Below are positions 1,860-63,710 of a stretch of 64,000 nucleotides of DNA, in pieces. Below the pieces are notes generated by a model. That model was not told where the DNA came from and searched no databases. It saw only the letters and a list, made by a program, of their open reading frames with translations. The position numbers and the translations under genes were made by a program. Source of the stretch: Kiritimatiellia bacterium (lineage in GTDB: Bacteria > Verrucomicrobiota > Kiritimatiellia > RFP12 > UBA1067); contig JBMNFY010000017.1 in the NCBI GenBank assembly GCA_050949565.1, forward strand, positions 1,431,299-1,495,298, written 5' to 3'. Each line of letters opens with the position of its first letter. Within the stretch, counting starts at the first letter, position 1.

Positions 1860-2306
1860 ATGCGTTGTCCCAAATGTGGCCATTTAGATGATAAGGTGCT
1901 GGACAGCCGCGCGGCGCGTGAAGGCGCGTCGATCCGTCGGCGGCGGCAGTGTCTTGCTTGTGAGCATCGCTTCACGACTTACGAAGAGATCGTGAAGGAC
2001 GAGCTGCGCGTGGTCAAACACGATGGCCGGCGCGAAGAGTTCAGCCGGGAGAAACTTGTGCGCGGCCTGATGCGCGCCTGCGAAAAGCGTCCGATCAGCG
2101 CGGATCAAATACGTGATTTGGTCGATCAGGTCGTCGAAAGCTTCGAAGGCGAGAGCGAAGTGACGACGGAAAAAATCGGACAGGCGGTGATGGCGCGGCT
2201 GCACCGGCTTGATGATGTGGCCTATATCCGCTTTGCTTCGGTCTACCGCCGCTTCGCTGATGTCAACCAGTTCTTGCAAGCGGTCAAGGATATGGTGGAG
2301 AAGTAA
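1860..2306 (+). CDS. nrdR: Transcriptional repressor NrdR (zinc ribbon plus ATP-cone)
   Basis: The 148-aa ORF begins MRCPKCG...CLACEHRFTTYE, followed by an ATP-cone; the length is typical. Confidence 0.9.
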   Translation: MRCPKCGHLDDKVLDSRAAREGASIRRRRQCLACEHRFTTYEEIVKDELRVVKHDGRREEFSREKLVRGLMRACEKRPISADQIRDLVDQVVESFEGESEVTTEKIGQAVMARLHRLDDVAYIRFASVYRRFADVNQFLQAVKDMVEK

Positions 2307-3283
2307 ATTTGGGATTTAGGATTTGGAACCATGAAACACATGAAACTTCATGAAAATCAGAGGCTGCCCCTTGCCGCACAGAGCGCGACCCGCGCTATGT
2401 GTGGAGTTAGAAATTTAGGATTTAGGATTTGGAACCATGAAACACATGAAACTTCATGAAAATCAGAGGCTGCCCCTTGCCGCACAGAGCGCGACCCGCG
2501 CTATGTGTGGAGTTAGAAATTTAGGATTTAGGATTTGGAACCATGAAACACATGAAACTTCATGAAAATCAGAGGCTGCCCCTTGCCGCACAGAGCGCGA
2601 CCCGCGCTATGTGTGGAGTTAGAAATTTAGGATTTAGGATTTGGAACCATGAAACACATGAAACTTCATGAAAATCAGAGGCTGCCCCTTGCCGCACAGA
2701 GCGCGACCCGCGCTATGTGTGGAGTTAGAAATTTAGGATTTAGGATTTGGAACCATGAAACACATGAAACTTCATGAAAATCAGAGGCTGCCCCTTGCCG
2801 CACAGAGCGCGACCCGCGCTATGTGTGGAGTTAGAAATTTAGGATTTAGGATTTGGAACCATGAAACACATGAAACTTCATGAAAATCAGAGGCTGCCCC
2901 TTGCCGCACAGAGCGCGACCCGCGCTATGTGTGGAGTTAGAAATTTAGGATTTAGGATTTGGAACCATGAAACACATGAAACTTCATGAAAAGCAGAGGC
3001 TGCCCCTTGCCGCACAGAGCGCGACCCGCGCTATGTGTGGAGTTAGAAATTTAGGATTTAGGATTTGGAACCATGAAACACATGAAACTTCATGAAAATC
3101 AGAGGCTGCCCCTTGCCGCACAGAGCGCGACCCGCGCTATGTGTGGAGTTAGAAATTTAGGATTTAGGATTTGGAACCATGAAACACATGAAACTTCATG
3201 AAAAGCAGAGGCTGCCCCTTGCCGCACAGAGCGCGACCCGCGCTATGTGTGGAGTTAGAAATTTAGGATTTAGGATTTAGGAT
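2307..3283. repeat. Tandem satellite array 2: ~9 copies of a 106-bp unit. Each unit has an 11-bp-stem hairpin (CACAGAGCGCG-accc-CGCGCTATGTG) and ends in AAATTTAGGATTTAGGATTT
   Basis: ATTTGGAACC recurs at 2321, 2427, 2533, 2639, 2745, 2851, 2957, 3063 and 3169. Variation is aaaaTcag/aaaaGcag. No ORF of 60 aa or more in any frame. Confidence 0.9.
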
Positions 3284-3643
3284 TTGTACAAGTTGACTGT
3301 CTATATTCCGGAGTCGCATCTTGAGGTTGTGAAGGATGCGCTGTTTGCTGCGGGGGCCGGACGTTACGCCGCCTATGACCGTTGCTGCTGGCAGGTGCTG
3401 GGCCAGGGGCAGTTCCGTCCGCTCGCTGGCAGTGATCCGTTCATCGGGACACAGGACCAAGAGGAGCGTCTGCCCGAGTACCGTGTCGAGATGATCTGCG
3501 CCGATGATGTGGTCGCTGCGGTAACGGATGCGCTGCGCGCCGCGCATCCCTATGAGGAGCCGGCGTTTGATTTTGTGCGCTGCTCGGGTGTCGGCTCTGC
3601 CGGGACTGCCGGTGATGCGACGCATGCGCCGACGCACTCCTAA
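3284..3643 (+). CDS. Small conserved protein with a PII/CutA/Nif3-C-terminal-like fold (COG3323-type); function unknown
   Basis: TTG start. The 'MYKLTVYIPESHLEVVKDALFAAGAG...GQFRPL...HPYEEPAFD' pattern matches a widespread family of ~100-aa proteins. The family name is recalled, not computed. Confidence 0.5.
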   Translation: MYKLTVYIPESHLEVVKDALFAAGAGRYAAYDRCCWQVLGQGQFRPLAGSDPFIGTQDQEERLPEYRVEMICADDVVAAVTDALRAAHPYEEPAFDFVRCSGVGSAGTAGDATHAPTHS

Positions 3644-3785
3644 ATCCTTGTCTATAAATTGACAGGATTACATGATTTACATGATTTTCAGGATTGAATA
3701 ACATCATGTTAATCATGTAATCATGTCCTAAACTTACTCCATGGTTTTTTCGTGGCGAAGCCACGCGGCAGGCTAACTCCTAAAT
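3637..3785. mobile_element. 149-bp AT-rich MITE-like or sRNA-like element, copy A. It is bounded by 9-bp direct repeats CTCCTAAAT
   Basis: 100% identical to 43552-43700. It contains a -35-like TTGACA, direct repeats TACATGAT x2 and ATCATGT x2, the palindrome AACATCATGTT and a CGTGGC-gaag-GCCACG hairpin. The TAA stop of the 3284..3643 gene and the TAG stop of the 3780..4697 gene both lie in the terminal repeats. Confidence 0.7.
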
Positions 3786-4697
3786 GCAAACTTCTTCCGC
3801 GCCGGGCGCGGAAGGCACGATCACCGAGAGTGCTTTGGGGCGTACGTTGATCGTTACGGGAGTGGTGCCGATGATGTCGCCGTCGGCCTGTACGACGATC
3901 GGGGTTTCGCAGTCGATGGAAACACTGCGGCTGGCCGGCAGTTCGTGGATGATGCGGTTGACATGGCGCGGAAAGATGCTGCGCGGGAAGAGCTTGCGTA
4001 TGAAGTAGTACCACGGGTACTCAATCGCCACCTTCATGCAGATGATGCAGACATCCACCTGTCCATCGTCGGCTCGGACGTCCGGACAGTTGGGATGCAG
4101 CACGCGCACCAGCATACCGCAGTTTGAGATCAGCACGTCGGTCGCATCATAGGTGCGCGCTTCTTCGCCGTCGATGGAGATGGCCAGGTGTTGCGGCTTG
4201 GCCTGCAGCACTTTCCAGACGGCCGTCCCCACATACGCAGTGCGGCCGAACAGGCTCTTGCCCAGACGTGACGTGCGGTCGATGACCTCGGCATTGATCC
4301 CCACTCCGGCATTCAGCAGATAGGTGAAGCCGTTGATCAGCATGGCATCGATAGCGCGTAGCGCGTGCGGCCCTGCCGCAAGCGCCACGGCCGCACGGAT
4401 GTCGAGCGGGATGCCGAGTTCACGCGCGACCAGATTGCCGGTTCCCGCCGGCACGATGCCAAGCGGCACGTGTGTATCGGTCAAGGCGTGTGCCACGGAT
4501 GAGACCGTGCCATCTCCCCCGACCGCCACCACGCCGTCAAACCCTTCATGCAGGCGCGCGCTGACGACTTCGGGAATCGAAACGTCTGGCGTGACTGCAA
4601 AAATCTCACACTCTGACGAAAGGTCTTGCAGGGCCGTCTTCAGGACGGCGCGTGTCTCCTCGCCTATGGTCGGCGCTACTATGAACAGCAGCTTCAT
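3780..4697 (-). CDS. Lipid kinase of the diacylglycerol kinase catalytic-domain family (YegS/BmrU/DgkA-like)
   Basis: 305-aa ORF with a GGDGT motif and DAGK_cat architecture. Confidence 0.8.
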   Translation of the reverse strand: MKLLFIVAPTIGEETRAVLKTALQDLSSECEIFAVTPDVSIPEVVSARLHEGFDGVVAVGGDGTVSSVAHALTDTHVPLGIVPAGTGNLVARELGIPLDIRAAVALAAGPHALRAIDAMLINGFTYLLNAGVGINAEVIDRTSRLGKSLFGRTAYVGTAVWKVLQAKPQHLAISIDGEEARTYDATDVLISNCGMLVRVLHPNCPDVRADDGQVDVCIICMKVAIEYPWYYFIRKLFPRSIFPRHVNRIIHELPASRSVSIDCETPIVVQADGDIIGTTPVTINVRPKALSVIVPSAPGAEEVCI

Positions 4698-4722
4698 GCC
4701 GCTCAGATTAACAAAACGGTGA

Positions 4723-4806
4723 GCTAGTGGCTAGTGGCTAGTGGTTAGTGGTTAGTGGTTAGTGGTTAGTGGCTAGTGGCTAGTGGCTAGTGGTTAGTGG
4801 CTAGTG
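4723..4806. repeat. Heptanucleotide microsatellite (G[C/T]TAGTG) x12, 26 nt upstream of the lipid-kinase start codon
   Basis: Counted directly: three GCTAGTG, four GTTAGTG, three GCTAGTG, one GTTAGTG, one GCTAGTG. Confidence 0.9.
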
Positions 4807-4843
4807 GGGCGCGGCTACGGGACTGCGGGGTACTACCGGTGGT

Positions 4844-27318: not shown

Positions 27319-27428
27319 GACTGGCGACCGGCGAGGCCAAACTCCTTGCCTATAAATTGACGGTATTTCCCGCTCCGCGGGCACATGTATCCAGAGTTTT
27401 CAGGATTGAACAACATCATGTTTTGTGT

Positions 27429-27724
27429 GTGCGCAGTCGGGAGCGCGGGCGTCCCCGCCCGCTCTGTGAAAGGCCGATCGAGATTCCGATGCGCGGCATC
27501 CGGGCTCGCGGAGCGCCGGGAGGGGCAAGCGTCTGCTTGCCCGCGGACGAGCAGACGCTCGTCCCTCCCCCTGCGGGCAAAACAAAAAAAATCTGCGCAA
27601 TCTGTGCAAATCTGCGGATAAAACCGGAAAACCGCAAGACACGTTGTTGCGGGCGAGGACGCCCGCGCTCCCGACTCCCTGTCCTCCTTTTCACCAGAAA
27701 CGCATGATTTTCGCCCCCTGTCGC
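27429..27724. mobile_element. Composite REP/MITE-like element. Inverted 32-bp arms (GCGCAGTCGGGAGCGCGGGCGTCCCCGCCCGC) at 27431-27462 and 27645-27676 enclose nested GC hairpins, and a right-end TIR CGCCCCCTGTCGCTAACC follows
   Basis: Arm and TIR sequences recur at 32140-32175, 48372-48465 and 55180-55310. There is a minus-strand T8 tract at 27585-27592 after a hairpin. Confidence 0.65.
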
Positions 27725-28659
27725 TAACCAACTCCGCGCGTAGCGCGGCGACCGCCCCACTTCTTCGATGCGTTTTCGCGGATCCAGGCGCGGGAGACGT
27801 TCACGGCATCAAGATTCATGTCCACGAGCGGGGTGCAGTGGAAGATCAGCCCGTCGATCGCTCCGGCGGCGAGGAGCCGCGAGGCCTGCGCGAGTTGGTT
27901 TTCCATCACCGCGCCCGGCATCTGTTTGCGGCCGCCGAAGTCGTACATGTATTGCCCGAGCAGGATCGGCTTCTCCGATCCGATCAAATCCCTGAGTTTC
28001 TCGACCCGCGCCTCAATGGTGCCGACGTTCTTACCGTGCCAGAACCAGAATGTGACTTCGTCGCAAAGGTCAAGGACGCTCTTGAATTCGGGCTTGATGT
28101 CGTTCGCATCGGAGTAGAGCACGACACCGAGCTTCATGCCGCGTTCGCTGGTACCGCGCTGTACTTCACGAATCGCGTCGAGCGAAAGCCCGTAGCCCTT
28201 GTAGCTGAAGAAATCATCCATGATGAGCGTCGTCAGGTTCGGCATCTTGTCGGCGTACTCGAAGCCCAGCCTGACCTTCTCCTCGAAGCTCTCTTCCGCG
28301 CTGTCGGTGATTGAGAAACCGATCCGCTTCATATTGCGGAACTGCTTCATGTATTCCGGCAACTCCGCTTTCTTGGGGTTGTTCGTCCAGCGGACGACAA
28401 AGCATCCCGGAATGCCCATGGACTTACAGGCATCAGCCATATCAATGCGCGTATCGTAGGGAAGGTTGTACTGCTCCTTGCTACCCTTGAGCGCCTTGAA
28501 CGAATCGCGGTGGTGCCCCCACATCCACAGGCGATCGCCGATTGTGTCCCCGTATGGCACACGTCCGTCGCGCCCGACTCCACCGCATATCCGGCACCCG
28601 CCGGTCACCGCCGCCGCAGCCGTGAGAGCGGACACTTTCATGAATTCTTGTCTGTTCAT
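27724..28659 (-). CDS. Tat-secreted hypothetical protein (TIM-barrel glycosidase-like?)
   Basis: MNRQEFMKVSALTAAAAV Tat-like signal; no confident family. Confidence 0.55.
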   Translation of the reverse strand: MNRQEFMKVSALTAAAAVTGGCRICGGVGRDGRVPYGDTIGDRLWMWGHHRDSFKALKGSKEQYNLPYDTRIDMADACKSMGIPGCFVVRWTNNPKKAELPEYMKQFRNMKRIGFSITDSAEESFEEKVRLGFEYADKMPNLTTLIMDDFFSYKGYGLSLDAIREVQRGTSERGMKLGVVLYSDANDIKPEFKSVLDLCDEVTFWFWHGKNVGTIEARVEKLRDLIGSEKPILLGQYMYDFGGRKQMPGAVMENQLAQASRLLAAGAIDGLIFHCTPLVDMNLDAVNVSRAWIRENASKKWGGRRATRGVG

Positions 28660-31985: not shown

Positions 31986-32287
31986 CCGATTTCAAAACCT
32001 TTCGCTACTTTCGCCTCTTCCGCTATCAAAAAAGTCAGACAGGGTAACATGCCTCCACCCCGAATTCACGCAAAAAAGCACACCGCGCGGTAATTGGTAA
32101 TCGTTTAGTAACAAGGAGCATGCGAGTTTAGTGCGTGGTTTGTGTGTGCGCAGTCGGGAGCGCGGGCGTCCCCGCCCGCAGAAAGTTGAACGTTGAGCGT
32201 TAAACGTTTTTTAACTCTGAACGCTGAACGTCGAATGCTGAACGCTGAAGTGAAAAACTCCTAAATCCCAACTCCTAAATTCTCCTT

Positions 32288-37978: not shown

Positions 37979-39052
37979 CTAATCAAGCTTGGGAATAACT
38001 TTTTGTTGCCCGTTAGCCTCGTTCTCTATCGTGACAACCGTTTTCTCACCATCCACGGTAAGGACGCGGTATGTTTCTTCGCGGACTTTGAACGTGCCAC
38101 CCTCCAACACCGTGTACTCGGCATTGTCGAGCGGGAACACGATCACCGCTTCAACATCTGTGACCTTTCCGCCTTCGTTGATTGTCAACGTCATCACCTT
38201 GTTGTCCGACAGTCTTTTCACTTCTACGGTCGAGACGTCCACCCGCATTTTGATGCCGGGCATATTAGGATTCTCGCGCTCGACGGATTTTGCCGTGACC
38301 GTTCCCGCAGCATAACCGGTCTCGCCGATCGGCTCATTCTCGCGCACCCAGTGGGTCCTGCGGATCGGTTCGACTTGGTTAAACACAATCTGGTTTTTGC
38401 CATCAGGCATCTTGTTGACGCCGCTGAAAATCAATGGCATGCGTTTGCCGCGCAACTCTTTCACGCGCAGGAGACTGACCAGCGGCGGATGTGATTTGGG
38501 GTCTTTCGGATCCGTCTTGGCGATGAACTCCTGAAGGTTGGTAAAGCCGTCGCCGTCGAGGTCGCCGTGGGCGTCCGCAGGGTCGTTCGGATTCAGACCA
38601 AGCGCAATCTCGATGCGATCCGGGATACCGTCGCCGTCGGTATCCAAGTCTGGATCCGCCTCCGCAGGTTTCGGTTGGCCGCCCCCGCAGAAGGGGCATT
38701 TCTCGGCGGCGTAGGGGATGGGTTTCTGGCACTCTTTAACCACGCAGGTCACACGCCGCTCCGGCATCAAAAAACCTGCCTTCTGGGCATCGGGAGTAGC
38801 AAGCTGCAACGGTGTGCGCGCCAACCGGATGGCGTCTTCAAACTCCGTCATGTCGATGGCTTTGAGGGCAGTGGAATCAGGCTTCAGCGAATCGATCCTG
38901 AGCTTGTAGTTCGCCTCTTCACGCTGCCGGGCAGGCCCTGCCGAGCGCGTGAGGTAAAACAGGGAGATGACGAGGCCAATCAGCACCACGACCACGATCA
39001 CTTTGTCGTAGTACTTGACGATGGGGTTATTCGCGTTGAATTTCAAGGCCAC
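37979..39052 (-). CDS. Membrane-anchored protein in the PilP position, with a CxxxC...CxxC zinc-ribbon-like motif and thrombospondin-type-3 Ca-binding repeats
   Basis: N-terminal TM; 'DTDGDGIPD...DLDGDGFTN'; sits between the PilO-like gene and the secretin. Confidence 0.45.
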   Translation of the reverse strand: MALKFNANNPIVKYYDKVIVVVVLIGLVISLFYLTRSAGPARQREEANYKLRIDSLKPDSTALKAIDMTEFEDAIRLARTPLQLATPDAQKAGFLMPERRVTCVVKECQKPIPYAAEKCPFCGGGQPKPAEADPDLDTDGDGIPDRIEIALGLNPNDPADAHGDLDGDGFTNLQEFIAKTDPKDPKSHPPLVSLLRVKELRGKRMPLIFSGVNKMPDGKNQIVFNQVEPIRRTHWVRENEPIGETGYAAGTVTAKSVERENPNMPGIKMRVDVSTVEVKRLSDNKVMTLTINEGGKVTDVEAVIVFPLDNAEYTVLEGGTFKVREETYRVLTVDGEKTVVTIENEANGQQKVIPKLD

Positions 39053-39055
39053 GGT

Positions 39056-40024
39056 TTATACTCCCTCAAACGAGTAGACATCGATCTCAAGTTTCACTGC
39101 CACCGGCGGTTCCAGTTCGGGATCGGTCACAATCCGTTCGACATGCGACAACTTGGCCGGATCGACAGGTTCCGCCGCGCCTTCGGCGGCAGCCTTCGAA
39201 GAACTCTCTTTTCTCTTGGCGTTGAACTGCGCCAAGGGATCGGCCGTCTTGCGCAACTCGGCTTCGGCCACAACCACAAACATATCCATGGCCGCCAGCC
39301 GGTTCAGCGCCTCAATGAGCGCAACAGGGCGCGCGACGAATTCGAGCGTAAAGCGCTGGCTGGTCCAATACGCCGACTCCGTGCGTGCGGCGGCCCCGGA
39401 TGCTCTGGCACTTCCGCCGCTGTCATCCCGGCGACGGGAACGGCGGCGCGAGGACGACTCCTGTTCCTCTTCCTCTTTTTTCACGACGTCAAAGACCTCG
39501 CGGGAAACGCTTCTCAACTCCATGATGCCGGCTGCGTAAAGCTCCTCACAGAGCTTCTCGATGATGGTCAGTTGCGCGGTCAGGCGATCCACATGTTCTG
39601 ACGCAGGCAGACTGTCGGACTGGCCAAGGTATTGGTCGAAGCCGAAGTTAAATCCGGGGGCGACAACCCTGCCCTGCACCGCACCGGCCTGAGCGGAGAG
39701 TTTGCGGACCGTAGCTTGAAGCGTCTGCTTGAAACTGGTCGGCGTTTTGGATTCAATCTGGAGGTCGCCTTTGTGAAGCTGATTGGAGGCGGTCACGAGC
39801 CAGCCTTCCAGCACCTTCTGATCCTCGCCGACGCGCGCGATATTCTCGTCGCTGGGGAAAACCTTGCCCCGGTAGATCTGCTGCAACGCCTGATATGCCT
39901 GGTCACGCTCTTCTGCCGCCCTGTTTTTGGCGGTTGTTTGGGTAAAGAGGAACCAGCCGGCAACGCCGCAGACAGCGGCCATCACGATGCCGCAAACGAT
40001 CATTATGATCTGTTGACGTTTCAT
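39056..40024 (-). CDS. PilO-like pilus assembly protein (TM plus coiled coil)
   Basis: Called from position and architecture only. Confidence 0.45.
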   Translation of the reverse strand: MKRQQIIMIVCGIVMAAVCGVAGWFLFTQTTAKNRAAEERDQAYQALQQIYRGKVFPSDENIARVGEDQKVLEGWLVTASNQLHKGDLQIESKTPTSFKQTLQATVRKLSAQAGAVQGRVVAPGFNFGFDQYLGQSDSLPASEHVDRLTAQLTIIEKLCEELYAAGIMELRSVSREVFDVVKKEEEEQESSSRRRSRRRDDSGGSARASGAAARTESAYWTSQRFTLEFVARPVALIEALNRLAAMDMFVVVAEAELRKTADPLAQFNAKRKESSSKAAAEGAAEPVDPAKLSHVERIVTDPELEPPVAVKLEIDVYSFEGV

Positions 40025-41712
40025 TTCGTTTCGGTATCCTTCGCGGCTGCTTCGGCCAACGTCGCCTCGATTGTAAACTCAATCAAATACGCCTCGATAT
40101 CCTTCTGGCCGGTGATTTTGACATCTTTCGGTCCATTGCCGAACACTGGCTGCGTCTTCAGACGGTCGCGCAACACCTCCAACGCTGTCGCACTGCGTCC
40201 GGCTTCGCGCTCTTTCTCCTCGACCGCCTTGAGCTTGTCCACCCAACCGCGTCCGACAATGCGCAATCCGGTCACAACGCCGCCCTCGTCCTTGATCGGC
40301 ACCAGTTCGGTGAGCCAGACCCCATCCAGCAGGCTTTTGCGCACGGCGTCCACGCGTTTCAGCCATGCCGTCCGCTGCAAGATCACGTCTCGCATCGCCT
40401 CGGCCTTCTTCGCGACCTCTCCTTCGGCAGCCTGCGCCTTGTTGAGCCGGGCCAGATCGCCCTTGCGCACGTCCAGCGCCGCGTTCACCTGCGCGCTCTG
40501 GGCATGGTAGAGTTCTGCGAGTTGCTTGGCGTGCACCGCCCAGATGAACAGGCAGAGCAACACGCCGGCCGCCGCCAGAGCAAAGTACGGCACGCGCTTC
40601 TTGAACGACTTGCGCTTCACGATCTCGGGCGGCATCAGGTTGATTTCAACCGGACACGCCAACGAGCGGCGCAGCGCCAATCCCACGCTCTCGGCCAACA
40701 CGAAGGCGTCTATGCTAACCCGGTCGCTATTGATCCGGTTGCTGATCCCGACGTTCTCAAACGGGTTGAGGTAGGTGACCTCAATCTGCAACTTGTCGTG
40801 AAAGAAGGTGTCCAGATGCGGCATAACCGACGAACCACCCGTCAGGAACATCCGGACCGGTGCGTTGCCGCCCTGCTGGCTACGATAAAAGTTAACGGAA
40901 CGATTGATTTCGGCGTGCAGACGCGTCACCACGTTGCGCACGATTTTCGAAACCCGCTCGGATGTCTCGTCCTCCGAGACGGTCACCCCGCCCAGCGATA
41001 CGAAAGCAACCTGCCGTTTCAATGCCTCGGCCTCTTCAAAGGAAATCTGGAAGCTCTTGGCGACCTCTTGCGTGATGGCATTACCGGCCACCGGGATGCA
41101 GCGGGTGTAAATTTTCTCGTCTTCAATAAAAATCAGATTGGTCGAACGCGAACCGATATCAAGCAACACCGTGCAGCCGTCCAACTGCGAGTAGTTGTAG
41201 CGCAGGCAGTTGTAGAGCGCCATCGGTGCCACATCGACGACCTCGGGCTCCAGCCCCATCTCCACGATGCGGTCGGTAATCTCGCGGACGTTCTCGGTCT
41301 TGGCCGCGACGATCATCGCACACTGCTCGCCCATTGTGGCGTCGCCGATGAACTGGTGGTTCCAAACGATCTCGCTCATCGGGAACGGGACGTTCTGCTC
41401 CACCTCGTACTGCACCATCTGGAGCAGTTTGTCCTCGGCGACGGCAGGCAACCGCACGAAACGCGGAAATACCATCTGACCGGAGAGCGAGAGCATCAGC
41501 GGCGCGGGGCGGATCCCGCATGTCTTCATGATCTCGCGGATAGCGGACTCCAGATTCGGACCAACACCTGTGTCGGTCTCCGGATTGCCTCCCACCTCGG
41601 CCATGCCGTAGTTGGTCAGCTCCGGCGCGCGCCCGCTCCTGACGGCGAATTCGGCCAATACAACTTTGCTCGCGCCCACATTGAGCGCGAGGATACGATC
41701 AGACGAGAACAC
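40021..41712 (-). CDS. pilM: Type IV pilus assembly ATPase-like PilM (actin/FtsA fold) fused to a PilN-like TM/coiled-coil C-terminus
   Basis: N-terminal 'ILALNVGASKV...' actin-like fold; TM 'VPYFALAAAGVLLCLFIWAV' at about aa 370, then coiled coil. Confidence 0.7.
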   Translation of the reverse strand: MFSSDRILALNVGASKVVLAEFAVRSGRAPELTNYGMAEVGGNPETDTGVGPNLESAIREIMKTCGIRPAPLMLSLSGQMVFPRFVRLPAVAEDKLLQMVQYEVEQNVPFPMSEIVWNHQFIGDATMGEQCAMIVAAKTENVREITDRIVEMGLEPEVVDVAPMALYNCLRYNYSQLDGCTVLLDIGSRSTNLIFIEDEKIYTRCIPVAGNAITQEVAKSFQISFEEAEALKRQVAFVSLGGVTVSEDETSERVSKIVRNVVTRLHAEINRSVNFYRSQQGGNAPVRMFLTGGSSVMPHLDTFFHDKLQIEVTYLNPFENVGISNRINSDRVSIDAFVLAESVGLALRRSLACPVEINLMPPEIVKRKSFKKRVPYFALAAAGVLLCLFIWAVHAKQLAELYHAQSAQVNAALDVRKGDLARLNKAQAAEGEVAKKAEAMRDVILQRTAWLKRVDAVRKSLLDGVWLTELVPIKDEGGVVTGLRIVGRGWVDKLKAVEEKEREAGRSATALEVLRDRLKTQPVFGNGPKDVKITGQKDIEAYLIEFTIEATLAEAAAKDTETK

Positions 41713-42413
41713 TATTGCACCACCTCGTAATCGTCCGGGTTAACCAAGGCAAACGGCGTCTTCGAACGCTCCAACAGCCCTGGGCGCCGGACCAAGAACG
41801 GATTGCCAGCCGCATCGCGCCTGTCCATCACGTTGGTGTCGCGCCACCACTCCTGCGGCAGTTGAATGCCGGTGGCCAGCGCCTCGCTGGCCACCACCTT
41901 ACCGTCCTTACCGGAAATTTCGAGTGCGATCGCGACCGGCTCGCCGTAGCGTTCCACGAGACTCGGCGGCAGAGCCACGCAACTCATGTGGCTGCCTTTC
42001 GGGATGTCGATGTACTTGACCGTCGCGGTGTAGTAACTGTAAATATCCTTGTTGTCGTCATCGCGGCCCTTGGTCATCACGTGGTAGATGAAGGTCAACT
42101 CGTCGGTCCACTTGGCGGAAGTTTCGTACCTCACCTCGAAGAGCGCCCACTCGCGCGGCCTGCGGCTGACTCTGGGCTGGACGTTGTTCACCGAATAGTT
42201 GAACTCGGGGGTTCTCACCATCGCCGTCTTGCCCGGCGGCGGGAAGCGCGTAATCTTGACCGTCTCCTCTTTCTTGGCCGTGGCCTGCGTAGCCGTACGC
42301 TGACTCAGCCGCCCGACCTGAGCCACAGCAGACTCAGCCAGACAGAAGAGGGCTGCTACCACACACACCGTTCGCAGAAACGTTTGCTCTCTTTTCATGT
42401 CGACGATCTCCAA
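41712..42413 (-). CDS. Secreted hypothetical protein, first gene of the pilus-like operon
   Basis: Signal peptide; shares a 1-nt overlap (coordinate 41712) with pilM. Confidence 0.5.
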   Translation of the reverse strand: MEIVDMKREQTFLRTVCVVAALFCLAESAVAQVGRLSQRTATQATAKKEETVKITRFPPPGKTAMVRTPEFNYSVNNVQPRVSRRPREWALFEVRYETSAKWTDELTFIYHVMTKGRDDDNKDIYSYYTATVKYIDIPKGSHMSCVALPPSLVERYGEPVAIALEISGKDGKVVASEALATGIQLPQEWWRDTNVMDRRDAAGNPFLVRRPGLLERSKTPFALVNPDDYEVVQ

Positions 42414-42684
42414 TCCGGGCCGAGGGAACCATCCTCTCTACGTCACCCTTTTATCATTTAGCACATCCAATTTAATCACATGCGGCGCAGAATGCAACAC
42501 AGAAACACAAATTTTTTCAGGAAATTTTTTCAAGGGCATAACTCCTAACTCCTAAATCCTAACTCCTAAATCTTCCTTGGAAGGAGATATCGCATTGCCT
42601 CCAGGGCGGTTTACGTGCCATAATCCCGCCTCACACATGCCGCATGGTCCCGGATGGTCGGGACAACGGCCTGAAGACACAGCT

Positions 42685-43156: not shown

Positions 43157-43545
43157 GCGCTGCTCGGTTTAACCACAGAGGCACGGAGGCACAGAGGTTT
43201 TTTGGAGCAACTAAGGGGCAGGTAATTAGACGACCACAAGAGGTTCAAGGGTTCAAGGGTTCAAGAGGTTCATCGGGATCGGGATCGCTATCGGGATCGG
43301 ACAGAACAGACAAAAACAGCGCAGCACTTTTACTCTCGCGGCTGCGGGGCGCTGCGTGGCCCAACAAAGAGAGGCTGACCCGCGACATTCGACCCGCGAC
43401 CTGCGGCGGTAGCGATACCGATACCGATAGCGATACCGATAGCGAACTAATGCGGGCGGAGCCCGCAACCCAATTCTTACCACGAAGTCACGAAGGAACA
43501 CGAGGGGTCCAAAAACCTCTGTGCCTCCGTGTCTCCGTGGTTCAA
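43157..43545. mobile_element. MITE-like element of ~385 bp with ~35-bp terminal inverted repeats (AACCACAGAGGCACGGAGGCACAGAGGTTTTTTGG / reverse complement). Internal (GGTTCAAG)x3, GGGATCGGGATCGCTATCGGGATCG and its near-inverse CGATACCGATACCGATAGCGATACCGATAGCG
   Basis: Direct inspection. The TIR module matches the units of array 1 (547-1711) and partial copies at 48190-48272 and 63582-63710. Confidence 0.7.
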
Positions 43546-43551
43546 CAAAAA

Positions 43552-43700
43552 CTCCTAAATCCTTGTCTATAAATTGACAGGATTACATGATTTACATGAT
43601 TTTCAGGATTGAATAACATCATGTTAATCATGTAATCATGTCCTAAACTTACTCCATGGTTTTTTCGTGGCGAAGCCACGCGGCAGGCTAACTCCTAAAT
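43552..43700. mobile_element. 149-bp AT-rich element, copy B (identical to 3637-3785), flanked by CTCCTAAAT direct repeats
   Basis: Base-by-base identical to copy A. The TAG stop of cimA (43695-43697, minus strand) lies inside the right repeat. Confidence 0.7.
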
Positions 43701-45296
43701 CCGCGCGCTGCGAGGCTGCGCGGCCGCGCGGGTTTCGAAGAGCTTGTGCTCGATGCTGTCCAGCAACGCTTGCCACGACGCCTCGATAATGTTTTCGGAG
43801 ACGCCCACAGTGCTCCACTGGCGTGTGCCGTCGCCGGACTCGATCAGTACGCGCGTCACCGCCCGGGTCGCCTCTTCCGGATCAAGGATGCGCACCCGGT
43901 AGTCCGTCAGCGCGATCTGCTCGATCTCAGGATAGAAGCGCGTCAGGGCCTGGCGTAGCGCCGCGTTGAGCGCGTCAACCGGACCCTGCCCTTCGCCGGC
44001 CGTCAGCCCGGTCACGCCGCCGACCTTGATCTTGACCGTGGCTTCAGAGAGGCACGGCTCTTCGTTGCCGCGCTTCTCGACAATCACGCGGAAGCCCTCT
44101 AACTCGAAGAAGGGATGGTGCTGGTTGAGCACTTTCTGCAGCAGGATCTTAAAGGAGCCATCCGCCGACTCGTAGGAATAGCCCTGCTCCTCGCGCCGCT
44201 TGACCTCGTCCAGAATCGCCCGCGCCCGCTCTTTGTCCAATCCGCTGAAATCGGTGCCCAACTCGGCGGCCTTCATCATCACGTTGGACGCGCCCGATAA
44301 TTCGGAGACCAGCACATGGCGCTGATTGCCCACCGCCTCGGGGGCGATGTGCTCGAAGGTGCGCGTGTTTTTCTGGATGGCATTGACATGCGCGCCCGCC
44401 TTGTGACTGAAGGCTGAGCGTCCCGTGTAAGGCTGACGCGGGTCCGGCCGCTGATTGGCCAGGTCGTCGGTCACCAGTGAAACCTCGCGCAGCCGGCGCA
44501 GCCGCTCGGCGCCCACGCACTCAAACCCCATCTTCAGTTCGAGCGCGGGGATGATCGTGGTCATGTTGGCGTTACCGGTGCGTTCGCCGTAGCCGTTGAT
44601 GCAGCCCTGCACCTGACGCGCACCGGCACGCACGGCTTCCAGCGAACTGGCCACCGCCAACCCGCCGTCATTGTGCGTATGGATGCCGACCTGCGCATCG
44701 GGCAATGCCGCGCACACTGCCTGTGTGATCGTGAAAACCTCGTGCGGCAGGGTACCGCCGTTGGTATCGCAGAGCACCACACCAGCGGCCCCCTCGCGCA
44801 TCGCCATCTGTAGCGTGTTCAGCGCATATTCTGGATCATCCTTGTAGCCATCGAAAAAATGCTCGGCATCAAAAAACACGCTCCGCCCCGCCGCCCGCAG
44901 GAAACCCACGGTGTCGGCGATCATCTGCAAGTTGTTCTCGCCGGTGGTGCGTAGCACATCGCGCACGTGCATCAGCCATGATTTGCCGTAGATCGTGACC
45001 CACTCGGTCTCTGCCGCCAGCAGGCCGGCGAGTTGCGGGTCGCCCTGCGCGTCCAGATCCACGCGCCGCGTGCTGCCGAACGCGACGATGCGGGCGTGCG
45101 ACAATTGCTCCTTGCGGATGTCGTCGAAAAAACGGCGGTCACGCGGGTTTGACCCCGCAAACCCTCCCTCGATAAAATCGACCCCGAACTCATCCAGCAG
45201 ATGCGCGAAACGCACCTTGGCTGTATCCGAGAAGGAGATGCCCTCGCCCTGCGCCCCGTCGCGCAGCGTCGTGTCGTAGATGTAGACTTTTTCCAT
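43695..45296 (-). CDS. cimA: (R)-citramalate synthase / 2-isopropylmalate synthase family (CimA-like)
   Basis: 'YDTTLRDGAQ...EGGFAGSNPRD' resembles the Geobacter-type CimA N-terminus; C-terminal LeuA-dimer-like region; 533 aa. Confidence 0.7.
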   Translation of the reverse strand: MEKVYIYDTTLRDGAQGEGISFSDTAKVRFAHLLDEFGVDFIEGGFAGSNPRDRRFFDDIRKEQLSHARIVAFGSTRRVDLDAQGDPQLAGLLAAETEWVTIYGKSWLMHVRDVLRTTGENNLQMIADTVGFLRAAGRSVFFDAEHFFDGYKDDPEYALNTLQMAMREGAAGVVLCDTNGGTLPHEVFTITQAVCAALPDAQVGIHTHNDGGLAVASSLEAVRAGARQVQGCINGYGERTGNANMTTIIPALELKMGFECVGAERLRRLREVSLVTDDLANQRPDPRQPYTGRSAFSHKAGAHVNAIQKNTRTFEHIAPEAVGNQRHVLVSELSGASNVMMKAAELGTDFSGLDKERARAILDEVKRREEQGYSYESADGSFKILLQKVLNQHHPFFELEGFRVIVEKRGNEEPCLSEATVKIKVGGVTGLTAGEGQGPVDALNAALRQALTRFYPEIEQIALTDYRVRILDPEEATRAVTRVLIESGDGTRQWSTVGVSENIIEASWQALLDSIEHKLFETRAAAQPRSARI

Positions 45297-47991: not shown

Positions 47992-48189
47992 ACCCTTTGC
48001 CTTCCTGTGGCTGTCAAAAAAACGAAGGCTATAGGGTAGTAAAAAACAGGAAGAGGAACAAGCTTAAGACGAAGCCGAAGATCGGTTAGCCTAAAAAGAG
48101 CAGTTGAACCGTCAACTCTCTTTGGTTTCTGGTTTCAAGGCTTCATGGTTTCATCCAAATCGGGATCGGGATCGCTATCGGGATCGATT

Positions 48190-48272
48190 GTTTAACCACG
48201 GAACACACCGAACACACGGAAAGGCATGGCTCTGTTTCCGTGTGTTTAGTGTGTTCCGTGGTTCCAATCAGA
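48190..48272. repeat. Long hairpin: a 29-bp stem with two mismatches, AACCACGGAACACACCGAACACACGGAAA ... TTTCCGTGTGTTTAGTGTGTTCCGTGGTT. It is a MITE-TIR-like 'GTTTAACCAC' module folded on itself. GGGATCGGGATCGCTATCGGGATCG sits upstream at 48161
   Basis: Direct inspection. Confidence 0.7.
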
Positions 48273-48371: not shown

Positions 48372-48465
48372 GGTTAGTGACAGGGGGTGCGAGTCGGGCG
48401 TTTCTGGTGAAAAGGGGGGCAGGGAGTCGGGAGCGTGGGCGTCCTCGCCCGCAACAACGTGTCTC
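48372..48465. repeat. Partial REP/MITE copy: left TIR GGTTAGTGACAGGGGGTGCGAGTCG plus the core ...GTTTCTGGTGAAAAGGGGGGCAGGGAGTCGGGAGCGTGGGCGTCCTCGCCCGC
   Basis: Same family as 55180-55310 and 27645-27724. Confidence 0.65.
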
Positions 48466-48879
48466 GCAAAAGGCTGATGCTTACACATACTCGTTTTTAG
48501 GTTTTTTGACAGGATTTACATGATTAACATGATTTGACAACACTAAGGGACAGGTGTTTTGGCCACGCTAAAAATGCCCAAGTTATGGGCAAGGAAAGGA
48601 GCACGGACATTCCTGTCCGTGCCACGGGTTGGAAAACCCGTGCCCCTGTTTTAATGCCAAGTTATAGGCAAGACGATTGATTTAGACGATTCTCAAGTGG
48701 CGTGGCTCGCGGAGCGCTGGGAGGGACGAGCGTTGCTCGTCCGGGCGGCGTTTCACGCCGCCACACGGGCAAGATGCCCGTGCCACACAGCCCGGCACCT
48801 GCAACTAGGGGACAGGTATTTAGACCCCCAAAAAACCTTCGTGCCCTTTGTGCCTTTGTGTGAGAAAAAACTCCTGCCT

Positions 48880-55179: not shown

Positions 55180-55310
55180 ATCGGTTAGTGACGGGGGCAC
55201 GCGAGGATCATGCGTTTCTGGTGAAAAGGGGAGCCGAGAGTCGGTTTTTGGACATGATAGACATGAGCACCAACCACGCACTCGACTCGCACCCCCTGTC
55301 ACTAACCGAT
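55180..55310. mobile_element. Complete ~130-bp MITE with 26-bp TIRs (ATCGGTTAGTGACGGGGGCACGCGAG / CTCGACTCGCACCCCCTGTCACTAACCGAT)
   Basis: Direct inspection; lies between the GH109-like gene start and the giant gene. Confidence 0.7.
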
Positions 55311-63581: not shown

Positions 63582-63710
63582 TTGTTTGTTTAACGCAGAG
63601 GCGCAGAGACGCAGAGGTTTTTTTGGAGGGAACGCGCTCCCGGACAAACTAATGCACTAAGTAACTAACGCACTAATTAACTTGGGTTGCGGGCTGCGCC
63701 CGCATTAGCA
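63582..63710. repeat. Partial MITE copy: GTTTAACGCAGAGGCGCAGAGACGCAGAGGTTTTTTTGGAGGG plus TTGGGTTGCGGGCTGCGCCCGCATTAG (reverse complement of 43441-43467)
   Basis: Direct comparison with 43157-43545. Confidence 0.65.

Follow-up and report, generated by a model that had tools for sequence, protein, structure and literature searches.

A short AT-rich sequence occurs twice, base for base, in a 64,000-nucleotide stretch of a Kiritimatiellia genome (the window, by which the whole of that stretch is meant), and both copies are located between convergent genes, immediately beside the stop codons. This arrangement raises the question of what the sequence is and how it came to occupy both places. The initial annotation had likened it to Correia- or ERIC-type MITEs that bring promoters or terminators, or to a small RNA gene family. 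The comparisons described below identify a MITE-like element without terminal inverted repeats (TIRs) and without a target-site duplication (TSD), which constitutes a new family within an under-studied class, though of a kind of small repeat already familiar from bacteria.

Two identical copies and their empty sites

A repeat search of the 64-kb window found positions 3636-3785 and 43551-43700 to be identical at 150 of 150 nucleotides, which upheld the 100% identity first described and lengthened the repeat by one base, from 149 to 150. The identity between the copies (A and B; Table 1) ends at the ends of the bordering heptamer tracts, and the flanks beyond are unrelated. The element was correctly described as AT-rich, with a GC content of 36.7% compared to 61.4% for the window. 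Genes were called with a codon-usage model. The ORF coordinates agreed with the earlier placement of stop codons inside the bordering 9-mers, with a TAA to the left of copy A and a TAG (read as CTA) to the right of both copies. Nine occurrences of the 9-mer CTCCTAAAT were counted in the window, where 0.05 would be expected, and four of these (3637, 3777, 43552, and 43692) bound copies A and B. Heptamer motifs were also found, as previously noted, at 497-537, 1818-1850, 32256-32287, and 42533-42578.

Table 1. Positions in the window of the element copies, their target tracts, internal features, and adjoining genes
Feature	Position	Strand	Remarks
ORF, small protein	3284..3643	+	weak P-II-like Pfam match; TAA stop in left 9-mer
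Left half of split heptamer tract, site A (ACTCCTAAATCC)	3636..3647	+	contains TAA stop of ORF 3284..3643; contiguous with right half in L067
Copy A, inserted element proper (TTGTCTATAAATTG...GCGGCAGGC)	3648..3773	+	126 nt; window minus this segment equals the L067 empty allele
Long imperfect palindrome	3661..3727	+	28-nt arms, 3661-3688 and 3700-3727, 89%
32-nt core (TTTCAGGATTGAATAACATCATGTTAATCATG)	3686..3717	+	97-100% identity across all units, both species
Tail hairpin, CGTGGC-GAA-GCCACG	3751..3765	+	T6 just before; 8 nt from right end
Right half of split tract, site A (TAACTCCTAAAT)	3774..3785	+	contains TAG stop (CTA) of the lipid kinase gene
ORF, DAGK/YegS-type lipid kinase	3780..4697	-	TAG (read CTA) in right 9-mer
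Third family member, truncated, diverged	27346..27422	+	nhmmer E = 7e-10; left flank ends CTCC
Unoccupied exact 24-nt target tract (ACTCCTAAATCC^TAACTCCTAAAT)	42548..42571	+	0 mismatches; same 24-mer at L067 empty site A
Left half of split heptamer tract, site B	43551..43562	+	
Copy B	43563..43688	+	126 nt, 100% identical to copy A
Right half of split tract, site B	43689..43700	+	contains TAG stop of cimA
ORF, cimA/HMGL-like	43695..45296	-	TAG (read CTA) in right 9-mer

The boundaries of the mobile unit were defined by an empty allele of site A in L067, a contig of the same species (metagenome Ga0255345) in which the kinase and nrdR genes are 99% identical to those of the window. L067 carries an intact tract, gacgcACTCCTAAATCCTAACTCCTAAATgcaaac, in which ACTCCTAAATCC and TAACTCCTAAAT are contiguous exactly at the position where the window holds the insert. 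Deletion of 3648-3773 from the window recreates this tract, and the mobile unit is therefore 126 nt long (TTGTC...CAGGC) and sits between ATCC and TAAC. The junction is ambiguous by at most 1 nt, which leaves no TSD. A 7-bp TSD, suggested by matching heptamers at L015 and L014, was ruled out by L067 and is also opposed by the lone-heptamer sites L001 and L011, where the left flanks are unmatched. A core duplication of the attC-like or tyrosine-recombinase type was rejected as well, since the L067 comparison shows direct, not inverted, ends and reveals no duplicated core. Both stop codons are already present in the empty L067 tract, indicating that the element neither brought nor altered them, and the kinase and P-II-like genes have the same ends in occupied and empty alleles. 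The 9-bp direct repeats, originally described as flanking repeats that supply stop codons, are thus the halves of a pre-existing (A/C)TCCTAA heptamer tract, which the element neither makes nor includes.

Further unoccupied sites were found, as the empty-site check proposed with the first description had called for. Relative to the window as reference, L039 and L068, from a sister lineage (88-92%), contain ATCCTAAATCCTAAAT at site A, two heptamers with both stop codons and without the element. In more distant relatives of ~80% nucleotide identity (L040/41 and L042-45), the kinase gene and the P-II-like gene are either overlapping (by 8 nt) or separated by 10 nt, with neither heptamers nor element. 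The polarity read from the sister lineage and the distant relatives indicates that the occupied site A is the derived state; L067 could instead represent a precise excision, and the element moved either way. The site B of L035 lacks the element: its cimA encodes 536 aa with a different tail, and 68 nt separate this gene from a DUF212 gene. The identity of L035 to the window is 99% on the side of cimA but falls to ~88% on the far side, and the contig may for this reason be chimeric or recombinant. Copy B was present at 100% identity in every contig that spans site B with the cimA allele of the window.

A repeat family with a common grammar and target

When one genome per species was scanned with a 22-nt core pattern, 20 loci were found in two Kiritimatiellia metagenome-assembled genomes (MAGs), and these supplied the further copies that had been sought. 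The sister-species genome JAPXSY01 (binned_ad_9.220) contains ~40 head-core units at ~20 intergenic sites; its copies bear out the proposed multi-copy, intergenic, and non-coding family. The monomers are 126-155 nt long, and all copies are intergenic. The same grammar was found at all loci: a head, an optional reversed type-1 insert, a core, and an optional type-1 or type-2 insert, the series being repeated one to four times and followed by a single tail. The head is TTGCCTATAAATTGMCAGGATKACAGGAT (beginning TTGYCTATAAATTGMCAGGAT...), and the core is TTTCAGGATTGAACAACATCATGTTAATCATG, which is 97-100% conserved. The optional hairpin inserts are 31 nt or 38 nt in length, and the 31-nt insert also appears reversed in the left arm. 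The core or insert is followed either by a further head-core unit, with a tandem period of 59 or 90, or by one tail, TCCTAAACKTATTCCAAGG-T6-CGCGGC-nGA-GCCGCG-CGGCRGGC (pattern TCCTAAAC...T6-GC hairpin...GGC). The family ends are TTGYCTATAAATTG... on the left and ...GCGGCRGGC on the right.

A window search with an nhmmer profile built from family members recovered the two full copies and one shortened copy. The latter confirms the diverged relative reported at about 27343-27420 and shows it to be truncated: its head is followed by a type-1 hairpin insert in reversed orientation and by 25 nt of the core, after which the copy breaks off into another repeat module. The version reported at 48505-48535 proved to be a short left-arm-like match without significance (E = 1.8). 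A further insertion site in the species of the window was seen in L062 (gcaaaCTCC/TTGTC). Many JAPXSY copies share larger flanking modules, so that they may not all be independent insertions, and were perhaps copied within a bigger mosaic. Neither solo heads or tails nor a longer element with these ends was found in ~220 kb of fetched loci sequence, and plasmid and phage collections and viral contigs gave no match to the element. A search of the literature for described Kiritimatiellia repeats found nothing relevant.

The internal features listed for copy A were largely confirmed, including the TTGACA box (at 3660), two occurrences of TACATGATT, and the palindrome; ATCATGT was counted three times rather than twice, and the tail hairpin, given earlier with a GAAG loop, has a GAA loop. 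Compared to the rest of the family, the window variant contains extra matching 9-nt and 8-nt blocks in the two palindrome arms and a change of CAGGAT to CATGAT, through which the palindrome is lengthened symmetrically and becomes almost perfect. The hairpin of this variant has predicted folding energies of -43.5 and -45.1 kcal/mol on the two strands (z = -5.5 and -5.1 against shuffles), whereas the JAPXSY monomers fold no better than shuffled sequences (z = -1.3 to -1.9). The strong fold is confined to the window variant, indicating that the family conserves primary sequence and not a long hairpin. The tail hairpin differs from the CGCGGC-nGA-GCCGCG of the JAPXSY copies by one compensatory C-G to T-A change. 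In two copies, L001 and L011, the tail-hairpin loop is inverted (TCC for GGA). Inverted tail loops and matched arm blocks look like the products of quasi-palindrome template-switch mutation rather than of selection. One hairpin is situated 13 nt inside the left end, and a GC hairpin 8 nt inside the right end; the two do not resemble each other, and in the sister species the left hairpin is weak. No TIRs were found: the ends TTGYCTATAAA... and ...GCGGCRGGC are non-complementary, and the repeat search returned the internal palindrome only. A short ORF inside the element was rejected because its reading frame differs between variants.

The flanks of the family members follow a simple rule. The left flank ends in (C/A/T)TCC at 22 of 26 heads, and the right flank starts with TAA at 20 of 21 tails. 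Sites with a lone heptamer obey the same rule (CTCC/.../TAAT in L001 and TTCC/.../TAAT in L015). The spacer between complete tandem elements is exactly one heptamer at L002 and exactly two at L010 and L007, as expected from independent hits on adjacent TCC^TAA sites. The aligned junctions indicate that insertion is precise between the TCC and TAA of (A/C/T)TCCTAA heptamers, usually within short heptamer tracts. In copies A and B, one variant has recently inserted into two identical 24-nt tracts at convergent 3′ ends.

Mode of spread and rival readings

The element is probably a member of a lineage-specific, non-coding, and non-autonomous Kiritimatiellia family that is directed to a TCC^TAA target, generates no TSD, carries no TIRs, and is moved in trans. 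An enzyme encoded elsewhere would mobilize it, and the single-strand "peel and paste" route of IS200/IS605-type (Y1/HUH) elements would be the best fit, because TSD and TIRs are absent, insertion is specific and beside a conserved tetranucleotide, and hairpins lie near the ends. IS200/IS605 elements excise precisely, and their left end inserts 3′ to an element-specific tetra- or pentanucleotide (PMC5027513), a position taken in the Kiritimatiellia family by (C/A/T)TCC (22/26). The palindrome-associated derivatives of IS200/IS605, and the related REP/RAYT systems (PMC8266576), are likewise small, non-coding, and hairpin-rich, lack TIRs and TSD, and insert precisely at a short target (PMC5027513, PMC8266576). 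However, the two end hairpins of the Kiritimatiellia family are unlike each other, whereas typical IS200/IS605 members have similar subterminal imperfect hairpins at left and right, recognized by one TnpA; this counts against membership in IS200/IS605, and the conservation of both flanks, TCC and TAA, resembles recognition of a whole site more than of a single 5′ tetranucleotide. Also unlike IS200/IS605, the target is a heptamer microsatellite, and neither a Y1 transposase nor a parent element with shared ends was found in the fetched loci. No transposase or recombinase for the element was detected in this ~220 kb of sequence. Recombinases of the IS91, IS607, or IS110 type are possible alternatives; IS607-family elements also lack TIRs and TSDs (PMC6188088). 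Elements of the IS200/IS605 type would be expected to favor the lagging-strand template; the three window copies share one orientation, but the GC skew of the window gives no clear direction of replication. An excised circular intermediate would join ...GCGGCAGGC to TTGTCTATAAA... (GGC/TTGTC). A cellular function would not be required, and any effect of the hairpin on transcript 3′ ends would be a by-product. The comparisons establish the target and the precise boundaries of the element, together with alleles from natural populations that contain it and others that lack it, and TSD-less insertion into a microsatellite offers a concrete handle for finding the responsible enzyme.

Comparison with known small repeats set the family apart from the MITE groups to which it was first likened. 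MITEs are defined as small elements with TIRs and a TSD (PMC3049150); the family resembles them in its size (below the 200-300 bp of the definition), non-coding nature, multiple copies, and AT-richness relative to the genome, and differs in having neither TIRs nor TSD. Its architecture, with a 5′ module, variable tandem internal modules, and a single 3′ module, is reminiscent of the BOX elements of Streptococcus, which are intergenic, strain-variable, and built as boxA-boxB(n)-boxC (PMC3049150). This likeness is one of architecture; the host phylum and base composition differ, and the Kiritimatiellia family has no complementary terminal modules and inserts at a defined site without duplication. 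Correia (CREE/NEMIS) and ERIC elements are similar in their length of 100-150 bp, their location at gene ends, and the possibility of hairpins in transcripts. Insertion of Correia elements creates a duplication of a TA target, and promoters and IHF sites are found within them. They also possess 26-bp TIRs (PMC3049150), and none of these features is present in the Kiritimatiellia element. Without TIRs and a TSD, the family is thus not a classical MITE, a Correia element, or an ERIC element.

A broader, and unlikely, reading is that the heptamer tracts are the sites of an undescribed site-specific system that inserts many non-coding cassettes at TCC^ junctions. The putative cassettes may include the element itself, the 85-nt unit of a 106-bp tandem array, GC-hairpin modules, and a 96-nt module (see below). 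Heptamer tracts border several unrelated modules, and the intergenic mosaics differ between strains that are 99% identical. If true, such a system would be integron-like or similar to Neisseria dRS3, but devoted to non-coding DNA; it would explain the wholesale intergenic differences between strains with 99%-identical genes, and several module types sharing a heptamer target would be of more interest than a single repeat family. Neisseria RS units are bounded by dRS3, and with these, as with the cyanobacterial STRR heptamers, short repeats link or are targeted by assorted non-coding modules. The Kiritimatiellia mosaics are similar in their short-repeat linkers and their differences between strains, whereas the linker is a tandem 7-mer, (A/C)TCCTAA, and not a 20-bp inverted repeat as in dRS3. 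The (A/C)TCCTAA linker is not known to be associated with a phage or recombinase.

Spread without a dedicated enzyme, the principal rival reading, in which homologous recombination or gene conversion between identical tracts, or microsatellite template switching, copies the contents of one tract into another, is decidedly unlikely. Such copying would be consistent with the identical 12-nt tract halves on each side of sites A and B, with the absence of a TSD, with the heptamer tracts that border other modules (the 106-bp array and a GC-hairpin module), and with intergenic mosaics that differ greatly between strains of 99% identity. However, the lone-heptamer copies (L001, L015, and L011) have 3-4 conserved nucleotides per side, too little for homologous recombination, and the junctions fall always exactly at TCC^TAA rather than variably within the tract.

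The location of both window copies against the stop codons of convergent genes, and the stability of the window-variant hairpin on both strands, would also suit a co-opted bidirectional terminator, an insulator, or a stabilizer of mRNA 3′ ends, as proposed for REP/BIME and ERIC. This role is improbable. A search of 3400-4000 found 0 sites with a hairpin followed by a T-run on either strand, the T6 lying 5′ of the GC hairpin; the terminator and promoter that the element had been thought to deliver are thus represented by no terminator-like site and by promoter-like hexamers within variant-specific arm sequence. Sister-species variants fold no better than shuffles, and strains or relatives without the element have 0-24 nt between the same genes. 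In JAPXSY the head side is directed to a gene 5′ end in 11 cases and to a 3′ end in 5, and the tail side in 9 and 8, respectively, so that the copies show no preferred direction with respect to genes. A Shine-Dalgarno sequence (CAAGGAG / TTAGGAG) supplied to downstream genes by the left end or the heptamers was also considered; it is plausible at L010 only, the start at L062 is doubtful (TAT signal from residue 44), and most head-side genes are >180 nt away.

A family of small RNA or cis-regulatory RNA genes with its own promoter (TTGACA...) is highly improbable. The TTGACA hexamer, the strong fold of the window variant, and the highly conserved 32-nt core could be read in its favor. However, no Rfam family matched at the gathering score, permissive thresholds gave only chance-level miRNA and snoRNA matches, and a search for tRNA and tmRNA found none. 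A promoter scan returned two weak promoter-like sites, both within the variant-specific arm sequence, and there is neither a conserved -10 box nor a terminator. The random orientation to genes, the tandem repetition of units, the nested inserts, and a fold that is not significant in the JAPXSY species further argue against RNA genes, and the earlier suggestion of an sRNA family was set aside on the grounds of Rfam, orientation, and fold.

A segmental duplication or an assembly artefact has practically no chance of explaining the two copies, since the identity stops exactly at the tract ends, between unrelated flanks without the longer shared sequence by which a duplication was to be recognized, and each copy recurs in an unchanged context in >20 independent contigs, which come from different samples. 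The 150-nt identity, together with the neighboring tandem arrays, does break or mis-join short-read MAG assemblies (L013/L017, L032, L038, and L062). The flanks of site B are identical in the MAG Kiritimatiellia bacterium AMR_MDS_2917, whose contigs (L013 and L017) break inside the element; L032 has an N-gap at the repeat, and the contigs L037, L053-55, and L061 terminate within the element. Exact matches to the cimA, aspartate kinase, and lipid kinase proteins are recorded in >100 sample blocks for each protein, and the contigs examined that run through a site contain the element there at 100% identity. The presence of the same copies in contigs of many samples indicates that they did not arise from a fault in a single assembly. 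In L038, cimA is connected through the element to the P-II-like gene, and this contig looks like a mis-join because the assembly k of 141 is shorter than the 150-nt repeat and the same sample contains dead-end contigs (L061). L062 joins the kinase gene, the element, and an AP_endonuc_2 gene; a real rearrangement was not accepted here, and the contig was treated as a likely mis-join across identical copies, the flank of which still reveals a third site. Joins of these two kinds are probably mis-assemblies in deposited MAGs.

Neighboring repeats and intergenic mosaics

The family adds a defined small mobile element to the poorly studied Kiritimatiellia of anaerobic digesters, and its surroundings contain several other repeats. 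Large tandem arrays flank nrdR at 540-1800 and 2295-3336, in which units of 115 bp and 106 bp, respectively, are each repeated ~10 times; the 106-bp unit consists of an 85-nt module and three heptamers. Both arrays are absent from L067, L040, L042, and L068, in which nrdR abuts its neighbors. The junction of the 106-bp array falls in the start codon of the P-II-like gene (3280-3290; cccATGtacaag at L067:720-740, compared with gatTTGtacaag in the window), where the native ATG and the upstream region have been replaced, leaving a TTG start. At the other end of this gene and in the convergent kinase gene, lineage-specific C-terminal extensions of 10-24 aa (3580-3640 and 3786-3815) pass through GC-hairpin-like sequence to the stops in the heptamer tract. 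The relatives L039, L040, and L042 end just past the conserved domain (...VIVP; ...AFDFVRIK). ORF ends and starts beside the mosaics are therefore unreliable, with tails that stop inside a heptamer tract and one ATG converted to TTG.

Copy B is adjoined by an element of ~380 nt (43167-43546) with 36-nt inverted repeats (GTTTAACCACAGAGGCACGGAGGCACAGAGGTTTTT, 92% complementary), which is absent from L035. Related modules, AACCAC(A/G)GAG...GAGGTTTTT, are located at 546-578, in the 115-bp array, at 48188-48263, and at 63584-63623. A module of ~96 nt (GGTTAGTGACAGGGGGTGCGAGTCGGG...GGGAGTCGGGAGCGYGGGCGTCC) occurs at 27634-27729 (minus strand), 48372-48467 (plus strand), and 55201-55307, with 84-100% identity and no Rfam match, and a relative of it flanks many JAPXSY copies of the element. 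The region upstream of the kinase gene contains, at 4711-4822, (TAGTGGY)n, a second heptamer microsatellite; it is present in L067 too, and is followed there by a different mosaic. A gene cluster at 38000-42413 combines domains of the Amuc_1100 and Amuc_1102 families with PilM and a secretin, and thereby resembles, within a Kiritimatiellia genome, the pilus-associated locus of the Akkermansia type.
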